A stretch of 64,000 bases of DNA from a virus. Taxonomy: Duplodnaviria > Heunggongvirae > Uroviricota > Caudoviricetes. This document shows, piece after piece, positions 6,811 through 57,539 of this stretch. Positions within the stretch are counted from its first letter, which is position 1; every line of letters begins with the position of its first letter. The stretch spans positions 1,236 to 65,235 of IMG/VR virus record IMGVR_UViG_2974615235_000001; one strand, written 5' to 3'. The notes under the pieces were generated by a model that saw only the letters and a program-made list of their open reading frames with translations, was not told the DNA's origin and searched no databases. The position numbers and the translations under genes are program-made.

Positions 6811-8172
6811 ATGACCTATAGAAATTTAACAAACATTGACATTGCGTTAACGGATGTTGGTGTAACTGCGCAAGGGTTTGGTACTCCTCTCTTTGCATCG
6901 TCTCACCGTTACTTCCCTGAACGTGTACGTGCTTACACATCACTACAAGCTGCATCAGAAGATTTACCTACAAACTCTAATGCTTATAAAGCTGTACAAG
7001 GTTTCTTCTCCGTAACACCTGCCCCTGCTGTGGTAAAAGTAGGTCGTAGAGAGGCTGACTTAGAATTGAGTGTTGCTAGTGGTGCTACTGGGGCTTCTTT
7101 AGTATTCCATGCTAGTGACGCAGGTACACCTTACTCAGTGGTAATTAATATTACTGGTGAAGCTGACGAAGATGCAGTAGCTTCTGCTATTGCCGCTGCT
7201 ATCGAAGGTGACTCTGATGTAGGTGGTTTAGTTGTTGCAAGTGCAACAGGTAGTACTGTCTCTATTGACGTAGCAGGCGCAGGTTCAGAGTTTTGGGTAG
7301 CTAACCTTTCAAAAGAATTGTCAGAAGTATACAACACTACTGAAACTGCTAGTGACCTTATTACTGCATTGTCTGACGAAGATGACGACTACTACTTCTT
7401 TACTTGTGAAGACCACTCAGATACATTCGTACAAGCAGCATCCGCTGAGATTGAAGCCCGTCTTAAAATGTACTTCACCTCTATTCAATTGTCAAATACA
7501 TTGACAGCTTACAATGAAGGTGCTGCTACTGACTTAGGTGGTATTATTAAAGACTCTGGAAGAGACCGTACTAAAGTATTCTTCCACCACAATGCTGATA
7601 CAGTGTTCCCTGAATGTATTCATGTTGCTGGCAATGCTACCTTTGACGCAGGCAGTGTCTTATGGGCCAATATTGCACTCCCATTAAGTGTATCTCAAGA
7701 CCCTGTTACTGGTAAAGCATTGAGTGCTACTCAGAAGGGATACTTAGAGGACCGTAACATTTCTTATATGGAACGTGGCGCAGGTAATGGTGTAGTAACC
7801 TCCACAGCTATTCTACGTAATAACAAAGTTCCTAGTGGTAATTGGATTTCTACTATTCGTGGTAGAGATAATATGCAAGTAGATTTAGCAGCAGAGATGT
7901 TATCACTACTTACAGCACAACGTGGTACTAAACTACCTTATACAGACGAAGGCATTGACTTAATTAAGTCTTCTGTGCGTAACGTATTAGACCTCTACGT
8001 CCTACGTAACTTCATCAAAGATAACTACGTATTAGACTTCTTGACAGAATCACAATCTTCTATTTCTGACAAGCAAGCAGGTGTATACCGTGGTGGTAAA
8101 TTCCAATGCGAACTGCAACAAGGTATCTTGTTCGTAGATTTATCTGGCTCACTTTCAATCGACTTAGGATAA
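6811..8172 (+). CDS. tail sheath protein (contractile tail)
   Basis: 453 aa; followed by a 174-aa tube-size ORF, a chaperone with frameshift and the tape measure (canonical myovirus order). Confidence 0.5.
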   Translation: MTYRNLTNIDIALTDVGVTAQGFGTPLFASSHRYFPERVRAYTSLQAASEDLPTNSNAYKAVQGFFSVTPAPAVVKVGRREADLELSVASGATGASLVFHASDAGTPYSVVINITGEADEDAVASAIAAAIEGDSDVGGLVVASATGSTVSIDVAGAGSEFWVANLSKELSEVYNTTETASDLITALSDEDDDYYFFTCEDHSDTFVQAASAEIEARLKMYFTSIQLSNTLTAYNEGAATDLGGIIKDSGRDRTKVFFHHNADTVFPECIHVAGNATFDAGSVLWANIALPLSVSQDPVTGKALSATQKGYLEDRNISYMERGAGNGVVTSTAILRNNKVPSGNWISTIRGRDNMQVDLAAEMLSLLTAQRGTKLPYTDEGIDLIKSSVRNVLDLYVLRNFIKDNYVLDFLTESQSSISDKQAGVYRGGKFQCELQQGILFVDLSGSLSIDLG

Positions 8173-8177
8173 TATAG

Positions 8178-8702
8178 ATGTCAACTTTTATTCAAACTTA
8201 TAATCCTGATCAAGTACGTGTCAACTGGGGCGGTAAATTCAACATTGACGGTTTTGCTGACGGTACTTTCATCACAATGAATCGTAACAGCCCTCGTAGC
8301 GAAGTAGTTGTAGGCGCTAAAGGTGATAACGCTATCACTAAAAGTGCTGACTTCTCTGGTATGATTGAGCTTACACTACTACAGAATGCCCCTGCTAATG
8401 AATACCTCTCTTACATTATGTCTTCAGAGGATCTTGCTGGTGAGTTCATTCGAGCTACTATTGAGGTTACTGACCCCTCTGGTAGTGTACTGTCTATTGC
8501 ACAACGTTGTCACATTCAAGAACCTGCCCCTGTTACATTAGGCGATGGTCAGAATGCTAAGACTTGGACTTTCTACTGTGAAGACTTGAAGTACTTATCT
8601 GTGCCAAGTGGCCTAGCAGCAGGTAAGGCTACACAGACAGCAGCAGCAGCCTACGGTGCATTGAAAACTGTAACAGATAGTTTAAAAACTGTTACACGAT
8701 AA
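8178..8702 (+). CDS. tail tube protein
   Basis: 174 aa directly after sheath; strong terminator downstream. Confidence 0.5.
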   Translation: MSTFIQTYNPDQVRVNWGGKFNIDGFADGTFITMNRNSPRSEVVVGAKGDNAITKSADFSGMIELTLLQNAPANEYLSYIMSSEDLAGEFIRATIEVTDPSGSVLSIAQRCHIQEPAPVTLGDGQNAKTWTFYCEDLKYLSVPSGLAAGKATQTAAAAYGALKTVTDSLKTVTR

Positions 8703-8725
8703 TAATTATAATATGTAAACTTGAA

Positions 8726-8761
8726 GGGGCAAATAGATTAATTTCTGTTTGCCCTTTTTTA
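8726..8761 (+). terminator. rho-independent terminator
   Basis: gggcaaa ... tttgccc stem followed by TTTTTT (8755-8760). Confidence 0.65.
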
Positions 8762-8777
8762 TTCAAAGGAGAAAGGT

Positions 8778-9236
8778 ATGTTACCAAAATATTCAGATAC
8801 AACAGTGAATGGCAAGAGCATTCGTATTAAATTACTTCCAGCTTTAACAGTAGGTATTCCTACCGCACGTAGACTTCTTAATATTATTGCCCCTGCTGTA
8901 GGTGGAACATTAGATGGTTTAAGACACGATGATTTCATTCATGGCGCACCTAAGACATTCTCTGAAATGGCTCTTGTAGTGTGTAAGCAATTAGAAGAAG
9001 CAGAAGTACACCAGATTATGTTTACTCTGCTAGAACACATGGAAGTAAATAATAAAGTAGTTAACCTAGATGAGTATTTCATGGGTAACTATGGTGAGAT
9101 GATTGAGATACTAGAGTTTGCTCTAAGGGAAAACTTCCAAAGTTTTTTTACGGGCAACGGTATGAAGGAGCGTTTTCACAAAGTAGTGGGAATGATAATG
9201 TCGGGTCAAACACAAGAAGAGTCCTCTCAAGAGTAG
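8778..9236 (+). CDS. tail assembly chaperone (G-like, frame-0 product)
   Basis: 152 aa ORF immediately upstream of tape measure; contains a T7 slippery run near its 3' end. Confidence 0.6.
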   Translation: MLPKYSDTTVNGKSIRIKLLPALTVGIPTARRLLNIIAPAVGGTLDGLRHDDFIHGAPKTFSEMALVVCKQLEEAEVHQIMFTLLEHMEVNNKVVNLDEYFMGNYGEMIEILEFALRENFQSFFTGNGMKERFHKVVGMIMSGQTQEESSQE

Positions 9237-9448
9237 AGAACTGTAAATCTTTCACACAAGAGAAACAGTTATTATACAGGGTTTACAATAGTGAATACAA
9301 CAAAGAAACTCTGCATACACTTCTTGACATGACAGTGAATGAGTTCTTTGACCATTTAGAGGCTGTAACGATATATGAGGATTTATCTAAAGCTGCTCAT
9401 AAAGATCATGAGGAAGATATGAAACGTAATAACAGAGGTGGAAGATAA
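8778..9448 (+). CDS. tail assembly chaperone, frameshifted long form (GT-like; -1 shift at 9143-9149)
   Basis: After the slip the -1 frame continues ...FFYGQRYEGAF...NNRGGR and ends at the TAATG overlap with the tape measure start; conserved G/GT arrangement of tailed phages. Confidence 0.5.
9143..9149 (+). other. -1 programmed ribosomal frameshift slippery heptamer T_TTT_TTT
   Basis: Run of 7 T in frame X_XXY_YYZ of the chaperone ORF; the -1 frame is open from 9107 to TAA 9446-9448. Confidence 0.55.
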
Positions 9449-11385
9449 TGGCTACCAATGTAGAAAAGTTTGTAGTTGATTTAGGGTTTAATGACGCTGA
9501 CCTAAAGAGACTTAAAGAACTTTTAAAACTCCAACAGACCGCAGATAAGAATGCACCTAAGAGGCTTCAGCAGACTACTAAGCAAGTCAATGAGGAAAGG
9601 AAACTCAACACTTTGGCTAATAAACGGCTTCAGATGAAGAAGCTCATAGCTAAAGCAGAGAAAGAGGGGGTGGCTGTCACTAAGTACAAGAAATCCCTTT
9701 CCGCTGCTAAGAAAATTGAGACTCTTGAAAAGCGTAGGATTGAACTTGAGGAGTTGTTCTGGAAGGCAAAGGAAGCTAATCAGAAAAAGGCCCAAGCTGC
9801 TAAACAGAAAGAGTTAAACACTGAAAAGAAAATAACTCAAGAGAAAGTTAAACAAACCTCTCCTTCTTTCTCTGACAGACGTAATGAAGTAAGGATGAGA
9901 AATGCCTTCGTCGAGAAGGTAGGGTTACGGGTTGAGAAATCTGGAGGCAGTCAGGGAGATATAGATGCCTTCAAGAAGAAAGCTAAGGCTGCCTACGGAT
10001 ATAAAGCTTCTGTTGCAGAGCTTAATAATGAGTTAAACAGATATGCTCATAAGCAACGTCAAGCTACTATGAGGACACGTAAGGCTAACCTAGCCATGCA
10101 AGGGTTGAATGACTCTACAAGGCACATGGTTAGGTCTTACGCTTCTTTGTATGCTGTCTTTGAAGCTACTACCGCTATCAATAGGACAGGTCAGCAGTTT
10201 GAGGCTATGAACTCTGCTATGTTGGCTGCAACAGGTACTTCTGAAATGGCTGCTAATGAGGTGGCGTTCCTTGATAAGATGACCTCTCGATTAGGTCTGT
10301 CCTTATTAGATACCTCAGACGCTTATACTAAGTTCTTGTTTGCTTCAAAAGGTAAGCTTGACCAAGACCAAACTAGGGAACTCTTTACAGGGTTATCTGA
10401 GCTAGGCACAACGTTAGGCGTTTCTAAAGAGAGAATGAAACTCTCAATGAACGCCATTACTCAAATGATGAACAAGGGAAAAATTTCTAGTGAAGAACTT
10501 CGCCTGCAATTAGCTGAAAGTTTGCCCGGCGCAATCCAAATATTCGCTAGATCAATCAATAAATCAGAAGCTGAACTTTTTAAAATGATGGAGAATGGAG
10601 AACTCCTAGCAGCAGATGTCCTTCCTAAAGTAGCTAAGGAAATGAAGAAAGTGGCTGCTGTAGGTTTAGAAGATAAACTAGACACATTACGTGTTGCTCA
10701 AGGACAATTCTTTAATGAGTTACAGAAGGCACAAGACACCATATTCCAAAGTGGATTTGCTGAAGGACTCAAGGATATGTTCTTTACCATATCAGAGTTC
10801 CTAAAAGGAAATGAGGACTCTTTGGAAGGTTTTGGTAAAGGTTTTAAAATGGTCTTCAATCTCATGGACGGAGCTTTAAAGCTAATACTCCCTATATTAG
10901 GTGCAATAGGTAGGGCTTTAGGCACAGTACATGATAGTCTTACGGCTATATTCGGGGAGGACTTATTCATAGATGCAGGTACACAAGTTAGTGGTTTAGG
11001 TCTAGCATTTACAGCCCTAGCGGTTAAGATGTCTCCTGTATATAGAATGGCATTAGCTATTATAGGTGTGATGGATGAAATAGCTGCCTTGTTTAGCACT
11101 GGTAGGTTAGGTATTCTAGAAGTAGCGTTAGGGAAAGATATTGACATAAGCAAAGCTGACCTAGACTTATTCGACATTGTAACAGCTACGAGTAATCCTA
11201 TGAAATTAATGGAACTAAACGAGAAGATGAATGGGTCGTCTGGTGTGTTTACTGATGTTAATAGAAGTAGGATAAACAATTCCTTAGAGCTTAAAGTGAC
11301 CACGGATAAAGAGTCCACTGTAGAAGTTGTTAAGAAGGAACTCAGCAAGGAATATGATGTTAACATACTATCAGGGGCGTTTTAA
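9448..11385 (+). CDS. tail tape measure protein
   Basis: 645 aa; N-terminal basic coiled coil, Gly/Ala-rich hydrophobic C-terminal part; position after the G/GT chaperone. Confidence 0.7.
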   Translation: MATNVEKFVVDLGFNDADLKRLKELLKLQQTADKNAPKRLQQTTKQVNEERKLNTLANKRLQMKKLIAKAEKEGVAVTKYKKSLSAAKKIETLEKRRIELEELFWKAKEANQKKAQAAKQKELNTEKKITQEKVKQTSPSFSDRRNEVRMRNAFVEKVGLRVEKSGGSQGDIDAFKKKAKAAYGYKASVAELNNELNRYAHKQRQATMRTRKANLAMQGLNDSTRHMVRSYASLYAVFEATTAINRTGQQFEAMNSAMLAATGTSEMAANEVAFLDKMTSRLGLSLLDTSDAYTKFLFASKGKLDQDQTRELFTGLSELGTTLGVSKERMKLSMNAITQMMNKGKISSEELRLQLAESLPGAIQIFARSINKSEAELFKMMENGELLAADVLPKVAKEMKKVAAVGLEDKLDTLRVAQGQFFNELQKAQDTIFQSGFAEGLKDMFFTISEFLKGNEDSLEGFGKGFKMVFNLMDGALKLILPILGAIGRALGTVHDSLTAIFGEDLFIDAGTQVSGLGLAFTALAVKMSPVYRMALAIIGVMDEIAALFSTGRLGILEVALGKDIDISKADLDLFDIVTATSNPMKLMELNEKMNGSSGVFTDVNRSRINNSLELKVTTDKESTVEVVKKELSKEYDVNILSGAF

Positions 11386-57453: not shown

Positions 57454-57502
57454 GCACCCTTGCCTGAGATAATGGTAAGGGTGTTTTTTTTTTTTTTTTT
57501 TT
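57454..57502 (+). terminator. rho-independent terminator with T19 tract
   Basis: gcacccttgcc / ggtaagggtg stem (one G.U position) followed by 19 consecutive T (57484-57502). Confidence 0.65.
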
Positions 57503-57510
57503 AATAGTAG

Positions 57511-57539
57511 TTGACATCATTAGAATGACAGTCTAGTAT
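57511..57539 (+). promoter_or_regulatory. sigma70-like promoter TTGACA-N17-TAGTAT
   Basis: ttgaca 57511-16; tagtat 57534-39; directly after the terminator, upstream of the 57572 gene. Confidence 0.5.

Follow-up and report, generated by a model that had tools for sequence, protein, structure and literature searches.

The locus described here raises the question of whether a run of seven T's, located close to the 3' end of the gene that directly precedes the tape measure gene of a tailed phage, is a site of programmed -1 ribosomal frameshifting, i.e., whether this one gene encodes two tail assembly chaperones that share their N-terminal part and differ in their C-terminal part. The window, that is, the whole stretch of DNA that was analyzed, comprises 64,000 nucleotides. 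Unless stated otherwise, all coordinates are positions in the window, and record positions are obtained by adding 1235. Between 8100 and 9600, the window is 100% identical to the genome of Alteromonas phage vB_AmeM_PT11-V22 (MN877442.1 / NC_048847.1, genus Myoalterovirus), referred to below as V22.

The chaperone gene and its second reading frame

The gene in question lies between a tail sheath gene (6811-8172) and a tube-position structural protein gene (8178-8702) on one side, and the tape measure protein gene (9448-11385, + strand) on the other. The latter was identified from the ORF list, from the annotation, and from matches to multiple PHROG tape-measure families, with E-values down to 1e-54. 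This is the position described for frameshifted chaperone genes of the G/GT type (Xu, Hendrix & Duda 2004). As read directly from the sequence, the ORF (8778-9236, + strand) starts with an ATG at 8778 and ends with a TAG stop at 9234-9236; it encodes a protein of 152 amino acids and 17.1 kDa, the 'G'-like frame-0 product, which GenBank lists as ORF13, 'tape measure chaperone / tail assembly chaperone'. This protein scores 78.8 bits against Pfam PF21822 (Phage_TAC_15), for which the gathering cut-off is 22, with residues 11-126 aligned to profile positions 1-125 of 127. Further matches are to several PHROG families of tail assembly chaperones, PHROG 1613 among them. An earlier note on this DNA had taken the 152-residue ORF directly before the tape measure gene for a tail chaperone, and the Pfam and PHROG matches, together with the gene order, bear this out.

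The T run (T_TTT_TTT, 9143-9149, + strand) comprises the codons of Phe123 and Phe124 and the third base of the AGT codon of Ser122. The frame-0 codons are thus AGT (9141-9143), TTT (9144-9146), TTT (9147-9149) and ACG, a phasing that places the heptamer in the X_XXY_YYZ register. In the -1 frame, a TGA at 9104-9106 is followed by an open stretch from 9107 to 9448, which ends with a TAA at 9446-9448. This stop codon shares its last A with the tape-measure ATG at 9448, so that the two overlap as TAATG. The register of the heptamer and the extent of the open -1 frame had both been described in the earlier note, and direct reading of the codons gives the same result. The -1 extension, which would encode a 'T'-like domain, spans 9149-9448 on the + strand, with 99 codons (YGQRY...NNRGGR) and the TAA. 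The predicted fusion therefore consists of 124 + 99 = 223 amino acids, with a mass of 25.6 kDa, as compared with 17.1 kDa for the frame-0 product. A fusion by slippage had been proposed before, with a length of about 222 residues (122 plus about 100); the proposal stands, with the lengths corrected as above. Translation across the junction gives ...ENFQSFF followed by YGQRYEGAF...NNRGGR, in agreement with the junction ...QSFFYGQRY... given earlier. At the peptide level, the frame-0 peptide ENFQSFFTGNGMK is to be set against the predicted junction tryptic peptide ENFQSFFYGQR, and the peptides VENCK, SFTQEK and VYNSEYNK are encoded in the -1 frame within 9149-9328.

The first possible start codon in the -1 frame is an ATG at 9329, and there is no ATG, GTG or TTG in the 74 open codons that precede it; the ORF list has no entry of at least 40 amino acids in this frame. 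The absence of an ATG from the -1 frame, as given in the earlier note, thus applies to these 74 codons, and not to the frame as a whole, since the ATG at 9329 is the annotated start of ORF14. Two features of G/GT-type genes are therefore found at this locus, namely an overlapping -1 frame that lacks a start codon up to 9329 and ends at the start of the tape measure gene, and an in-phase slippery sequence inside the overlap.

To gauge how often such an arrangement arises by chance, we evaluated 17,071 codon positions in the 66 non-overlapping ORFs of at least 100 amino acids in the window, in which off-frame stops are frequent (38.7% G+C). The open run in the -1 frame has a median length of 4 codons, and it reaches at least 99 codons at only 0.66% of these positions. 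The 66 ORFs include 61 in-phase heptamers of the X_XXY_YYZ form, also with a median -1 extension of 4 codons. Only one of the 61 has an extension of more than 47 codons, and this is the T run at 9143-9149, with 99. It is also the sole intragenic run of at least seven T's in the window; the other run of this length is the tail of an intergenic terminator. The combination of this slip site with a long -1 ORF is more than chance.

A second heptamer was considered as a frameshift candidate and rejected, namely T_TTA_AAA at 8681-8687, at the end of the tube gene, which has a -1 extension of 47 codons. This extension passes through the intergenic terminator. Moreover, the heptamer is lost in a locus that is 93% identical to the window (L004, where it reads TCTAAAA), and hence its presence at 8681-8687 is most likely due to chance.

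A structural model of the 152-residue protein was created with AlphaFold2 from an alignment of 25 homologues. The pLDDT of this model is 74.8, and its confident core ends with a helix comprising residues 105-123. The end of the core (about residue 123) coincides exactly with the slip site, and the frame-0 tail beyond it is poorly ordered. Comparison with the BFVD collection shows that the model resembles phage tail assembly chaperones, the best match being the 212-residue tape measure chaperone of Citrobacter phage Moogle. Neither a profile search of PDB sequences nor a Foldseek search of the PDB with the model gave a significant match; thus, no solved structure represents the V22-type chaperone family. 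The 223-residue fusion, modeled without an alignment, reached a pLDDT of 37.9, and this model is therefore uninformative on the T domain. When compared with Pfam and PHROG, the domain encoded in the -1 frame gave only sub-threshold noise (DUF4581, E 0.01; phrog_9583, E 0.02). The chaperone profile PHROG 29715, which has 255 positions, matches the fusion with an E-value of 4e-10, in two stretches, versus 1e-4 for the short product.

Conservation of the probable slip site and of both predicted products

Among 25 protein homologues, all of 148-167 amino acids, residues F123, F124 and T125 are invariant (25 of 25). At the nucleotide level, we drew on collections of viral and metagenome sequences, which yielded 34 homologous loci; about 20 of these are distinct (31-95% identity). 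The positions of slip site and -1 ORF were determined for each locus. The full comparison set consists of 21 distinct sequences with 30-95% identity, namely 20 metagenomic or viral loci and Citrobacter phage Mordin. An in-phase run of seven T's is found at the aligned Phe-Phe pair in 19 of the 20 distinct V22-like loci; the two other heptamers in the set of 21 are T_TTT_TTC, in Mordin, and CCTTTTT, in the one V22-like exception. A -1 ORF of 91-110 codons is present in all 21 sequences, and its end coincides with the start of the tape measure gene or lies a few bases away from it. The codon that precedes Phe-Phe specifies Ser, Thr or Asp across the homologues, yet its third base is always T. 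Similarly, the V22-like loci with seven T's encode Phe-Phe as TTT TTT, despite the fact that this is the rarest Phe-Phe codon pair in the V22 genome (3 of 29). Because synonymous sites are saturated between these lineages (pS 0.6-0.9), the persistence of the run indicates that selection maintains the nucleotides of the heptamer.

The exceptional locus (L029, Ga0070747_1039983, positions 852-858) encodes Ser-Leu-Phe in frame 0 in place of Ser-Phe-Phe, and has an intact -1 ORF of 94 codons. It retains only the shift-prone tetramer U_UUU, and slippage there would thus involve a single tRNA or be less efficient.

The peptides encoded in the -1 frame align well and share a conserved core, VY.SKYNKE[TS][LI]..L...MT..EF. 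Past the frame-0 stop, where only the -1 frame is read, the differences between the window and its closest relatives fall mainly on third codon positions (0/0/5, 10/6/24 and 10/6/26 at first/second/third positions), and the dN/dS ratio of the -1 ORF is 0.05-0.14 relative to close relatives. These substitution patterns show that purifying selection acts on the -1 ORF. Conservation extends to the frame-0 tail, in which T125 and R132 are invariant and G128, K130 and F133 nearly so. In the closer relatives, nucleotide conservation in the dual-coded overlap exceeds that of either flank. Given the constraint on the -1 frame and the conservation of the frame-0 tail, both chaperone products appear to be under selection. 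An arrangement that persists in relatives, with a second frame under coding selection, is a further feature of the G/GT type.

The public V22 records suggest a different reading of the same region. MN877442 and NC_048847 contain no joined or frameshifted CDS at the chaperone; instead, ORF13 is accompanied by a separate ORF14, a 'hypothetical protein' of 39 amino acids (9329-9448, + strand). If there were no recoding, the -1 ORF would be expressed only as this independent protein, from the ATG at 9329, and the T run would be incidental. Both GenBank and RefSeq annotate the region in this way, and the methionine is present in many homologues. However, no Shine-Dalgarno motif precedes the ATG at 9329, and the methionine is missing in one homologous locus (L025). 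Over the roughly 60 codons between the heptamer and this ATG, where there is no start codon, the amino acids are likewise conserved and dN/dS is low, and an incidental T run is difficult to reconcile with its conservation over saturated synonymous divergence, or with the continuity of the homologous Mordin protein across the junction. We therefore regard the independent gene as very improbable; the annotated ORF14 is more plausibly the last part of the frameshift product, and spurious in its own right.

The continuity in Mordin is one of several points of contact with the Felix O1-like phages. A tblastn search of 50,697 phage records with the fusion retrieved V22 and about 300 Ounavirinae and allied Felix O1-like phages. 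The chaperone gene of Mordin is annotated twice, as a protein of 133 amino acids and as a joined, two-piece product of 212 amino acids that reaches the tape-measure start. Its slip site is T_TTT_TTC, at the aligned Gly-Ser-Phe-Phe, and the same is true of phage EC6. In a BLASTP comparison, the V22 fusion and the joined Mordin product share 30% identity over 209 amino acids (E 5e-23), and the alignment is continuous through the junction (SFF followed by Y or R, then G). The homology thus covers the part read in frame 0 as well as the one read in the -1 frame, and the two slip sites fall in the same alignment column. That the tape measure chaperone has a translational frameshift has also been stated in the papers announcing the Moogle and Mijalis genomes (PMC4319497, PMC5543628). 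V22 has in common with the Felix O1-like phages the gene order (sheath, tube, terminator, chaperone, tape measure), the location of the slip site at an aligned Gly/Gln-Ser-Phe-Phe, a -1 ORF that finishes on the tape-measure start, and a Shine-Dalgarno (SD)-like motif upstream, which in Mordin is GGAGG. They differ in the heptamer, i.e., T_TTT_TTC in Felix O1-like phages versus T_TTT_TTT in V22, and in their hosts, which are enterobacteria in the former case and marine Alteromonas in the latter. The frameshift is annotated in Mordin, reported for Moogle and Mijalis, and unannotated in V22, and in all of them it is a bioinformatic prediction.

The length of the T run at the homologous slip site varies among Felixounavirus records. 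In phage EC6 (L040, NC_027369, 954-959) the site is T6C, and the two frames are given as separate CDS. In Escherichia phage CL1 (L038, OK040806, 1854-1860) it is T7C, which results in one in-frame G-T fusion ORF, and in Escherichia phage MET-P1-301 (L039, PV700625, 298-936) a shortened run, with a single Phe in the protein (GSF-R), has the same outcome. Either the run lengths in CL1 and MET-P1-301 are errors of homopolymer sequencing, or they are real, in which case the long product alone would be made.

These two Felixounavirus records are also what lends some plausibility to the idea that the T run of V22 itself results from a homopolymer error in sequencing or assembly, the true genome having eight or five T's and a single in-frame G-T gene with no frameshift. 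However, the two-frame layout with seven T's is found in the isolate as well as in about 20 metagenome sequences assembled independently from different samples. Furthermore, the frame-0 C-terminal tail and its stop are conserved. This explanation is the least likely of those considered here, and we attach next to no weight to it.

Taken together, the conservation of the heptamer, the constraint on the -1 frame and the homology with Mordin through the junction support the frameshift reading. On this basis, we consider it highly probable, at roughly 90%, that the T run in the V22 chaperone gene is a programmed -1 ribosomal frameshift site in a marine myovirus with a Felix O1-like tail. The earlier note had recognized in this locus the conserved tail-assembly-chaperone frameshift of tailed phages, and this view is strengthened by the retention of slip site and -1 ORF in about 20 divergent loci, by purifying selection, and by the joined CDS of the Felix O1-like phages. 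It had also assigned the locus to the G/GT type. The arrangement is indeed of this type, but V22 is a contractile-tailed myovirus, and its chaperone is therefore closest to those of the Felix O1-like phages (Ounavirinae), and not to lambda G/GT itself.

Proposed ribosomal slippage and its candidate stimulators

In the mechanism that we propose, most ribosomes would read 8778-9236 and produce the 152-residue chaperone. With UUU UUU in the P and A sites, a minority would slip back by one base on U_UUU_UUU. The tRNA-Phe would re-pair perfectly in the -1 frame, and either tandem or P-site slippage would result in the same SFF-Y junction. The slipped ribosomes would then read UAC GGG and so on, up to the TAA at 9446-9448, and thus yield a protein of 223 amino acids, of which the N-terminal 124 would be shared with the short product and the C-terminal 99 would be different. 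The stimulus would probably be the slippery sequence itself, aided by the SD-like motif 11-12 nt upstream, and no downstream structure would be needed. In E. coli, U_UU.U_UU.Y is among the efficient -1 motifs and U_UU.U among the most shift-prone tetramers (PMC4066793); in an older comparison, U_UUU_UUU ranked well below A_AAA_AAG (PMC5009743). Given this ranking, the efficiency at the V22 site may be low.

The functional part of this proposal is modeled on gpG/gpGT of phage lambda, whose chaperone gene, like that of V22, lies just before the tape measure gene, and where -1 slippage near the 3' end leads to a different C-terminal domain. In lambda, slippage occurs at a low level, and virions are expected to contain neither of the two products, as would also be expected of V22 (PMC5009743, which summarizes Levin et al. 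1993 and Xu, Hendrix & Duda 2004, 2013, 2014). The G part binds the tape measure protein and the T part binds the tube protein, at a product ratio of 30:1, values and partners that were measured for lambda only (PMC5009743). By analogy, the shared N-terminal domain of the V22 products would coat the tape measure protein encoded just downstream, with the tube protein recruited by the domain encoded in the -1 frame and the ratio of the two products set by the slip frequency. We infer these chaperone roles in V22, and with them the binding partners of the products, from lambda; that ribosomes slip, and how often, is likewise inferred. The two systems have no detectable sequence similarity, lambda being a siphovirus with G_GGA_AAG and V22 a myovirus with T_TTT_TTT. 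The E/E+E' genes of phage P2 are a myovirus version of a frameshift between the tube and tape measure genes, as in V22, but they belong to a different protein family. The efficiency of P2-type frameshifts is reported to be 2-3 fold above that of lambda (PMC5009743).

An SD-like sequence, AAGGGA, is found at 9125-9130 on the + strand, 12 nt before the heptamer. SD-like sequences located 9-14 nt upstream are known to stimulate -1 shifts (PMC5009743), and since the spacing is within this range, the motif is a candidate upstream stimulator. A motif with a GGAG or GGGA core occurs at the same offset in 18 of 21 V22-like sequences; it has the form AAGGGA in V22, and AAGGAG, AGGGAG or CGGGAG in most relatives. 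In Mordin, the sequence at the equivalent offset is GGAGG, though the encoded amino acids differ. By comparison, the same core has a background frequency of 26% in [RK]E codon pairs. In most loci, the SD-like motif is the strongest or near-strongest anti-SD match of the gene body. The V22 motif is weaker than those of its relatives (-5.3 kcal/mol, in the top 1%), and its conservation is confounded by that of the encoded peptide, L-[RK]-E-N. From its sequence and spacing, this motif may stimulate slippage.

A perfect AAGGAG is also found at 9165-9170, inside the overlap and 16 nt past the heptamer. It occurs only in V22 and its closest relatives, while other loci have AAACAG or AAAGCC, and it is followed by no start codon at initiation distance. 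This second sequence is probably incidental.

Downstream of the heptamer, a stem-loop or pseudoknot had been suggested as a possible stimulator; the search for one gave no support for this idea. The minimum free energy of the segment 9150-9240 is no better than that of shuffled sequences (z 0.06). When the segment 9150-9200 is folded, the sole hairpin is that at 9171-9194 (+ strand), a G·U-rich stem of 9 bp that begins 21 nt past the heptamer, with a free energy of -8.7 to -9.5 kcal/mol and a z-score of -1.9. RNAalifold detects no consensus pairs downstream over 16 homologues, and 64% of the cells in the alignment of this hairpin can be paired, as compared with 59% in shuffles. We have therefore rejected the 9171-9194 hairpin as a stimulator, on the grounds of z-scores, consensus folding and pair counts. 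Another candidate, a stem of ACGGGC and GCCCGT right after the heptamer in some distant loci (L027, L028 and L009), was rejected because the V22 clade lacks it and it lies too near the slip site. Likewise, the window contains no tRNA genes, and thus no phage tRNA-Phe that could act as a modulator of slippage.

These features invite comparison with E. coli dnaX, which also has an internal SD-like sequence about 10 nt before a homopolymer-type heptamer. However, dnaX depends additionally on a strong stem-loop downstream of the site and has a shift rate of about 50%, whereas no conserved downstream structure was found in V22; specifically, the folds described above show no stable stem-loop 5-9 nt 3' of the V22 slip site, where dnaX-type signals have a stem-loop or pseudoknot. 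The V22 site is thus mildly unusual, in that a strictly conserved homopolymeric heptamer and a conserved upstream SD-like motif go together with no detected 3' structure.

The homopolymeric nature of the site also makes it necessary to consider slippage during transcription as the main route. In that case, RNA polymerase would stutter on the A7 template, and mRNAs with U8 would be translated into an identical 223-residue fusion (...SFFYGQRY...), so that the protein is indistinguishable from the ribosomal product. The site is a pure homopolymer of seven, and E. coli genes show an under-representation of UUUUUUU in every frame, with transcriptional slippage as a possible cause (PMC4066793). The differences in run length among the Felixounavirus records also show that the run is error-prone, either for polymerases or in sequencing. 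Nevertheless, the productive cases in bacteria involve runs of about 9 A's or T's (PMC5009743), and the V22 run has seven; homologues with runs of six (T6C, in Ounavirinae) or five (L029) still keep the -1 ORF. In addition, the X_XXY_YYZ register, which is relevant to ribosomes, is strictly kept, and an SD-like motif at the spacing typical of -1 frameshifts points to a ribosomal event. Transcriptional slippage as the main route is therefore unlikely, albeit less so than the alternatives of an independent ORF14 or a sequencing error, and ribosomal slippage is the reading that we retain.

A more general, and more speculative, possibility is that V22 exemplifies a family-wide 'half-dnaX' cassette that extends from the marine Myoalterovirus-like to the enteric Felix O1-like phages. 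Such a cassette would consist of a homopolymeric U run and conserved upstream anti-SD pairing, with no downstream RNA structure, and would have been kept over saturated divergence; stuttering of RNA polymerase might make a measurable added contribution. We put this forward tentatively, as an idea that we think has the odds somewhat against it. In any case, the natural series of T7, T6C and CCT5 could be used to study how slip-site composition and upstream rRNA pairing affect the G:GT ratio.

Annotation of the V22 records and other features of the window

The frameshift described here is of a kind that is already known, and even its family-specific instance is, in view of the joined CDS of Mordin, the Moogle and Mijalis reports, and the synteny with Ounavirinae that the authors of the V22 genome noted for its structural module (PMC7289586). 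What is new is only the extension to V22 and its uncultured marine relatives, in whose records it was missed. In the text of the V22 description (PMC7289586), neither 'frameshift' nor 'tape measure' occurs. The understanding of tail assembly is unchanged by this finding; its general interest is low, and its main use lies in re-annotation. The public V22 records split one frameshifted chaperone into ORF13 and a spurious 39-residue ORF14, and the region would be modeled correctly by a joined CDS that carries ribosomal_slippage at position 10384 of the record (= 9149 + 1235). Many Felixounavirus records are affected likewise, with two separate CDS in EC6 and a single fused ORF in others.

Two putative terminators in the window are also worth recording. 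The first is a hairpin at 8723-8764, between the tube and chaperone genes, which resembles an intrinsic terminator (15 bp, -21.5 kcal/mol, z -3.98) and is followed by a T run and then by a strong ribosome-binding site, AAAGGAG. A GC-rich hairpin is found at the equivalent place in 15 of 15 related loci (L004, L005, L006, L007, L009, L011, L012, L013, L017, L020, L021, L027, L028, L036 and L037), in most of them followed by a T run, and in Mordin the hairpin at this place is annotated as 'terminator'. Through attenuation at this element, the chaperone and tape measure genes are probably transcribed less than the sheath and tube genes. The second is located at 57455-57530, between two ORFs on the + strand, where a hairpin (CACCCTTGCC...GGTAAGGGTG) is followed by 19 T's (57484-57502) and then by a TTGACA box; it looks like an unusually long terminator U-tract beside a promoter-like site.
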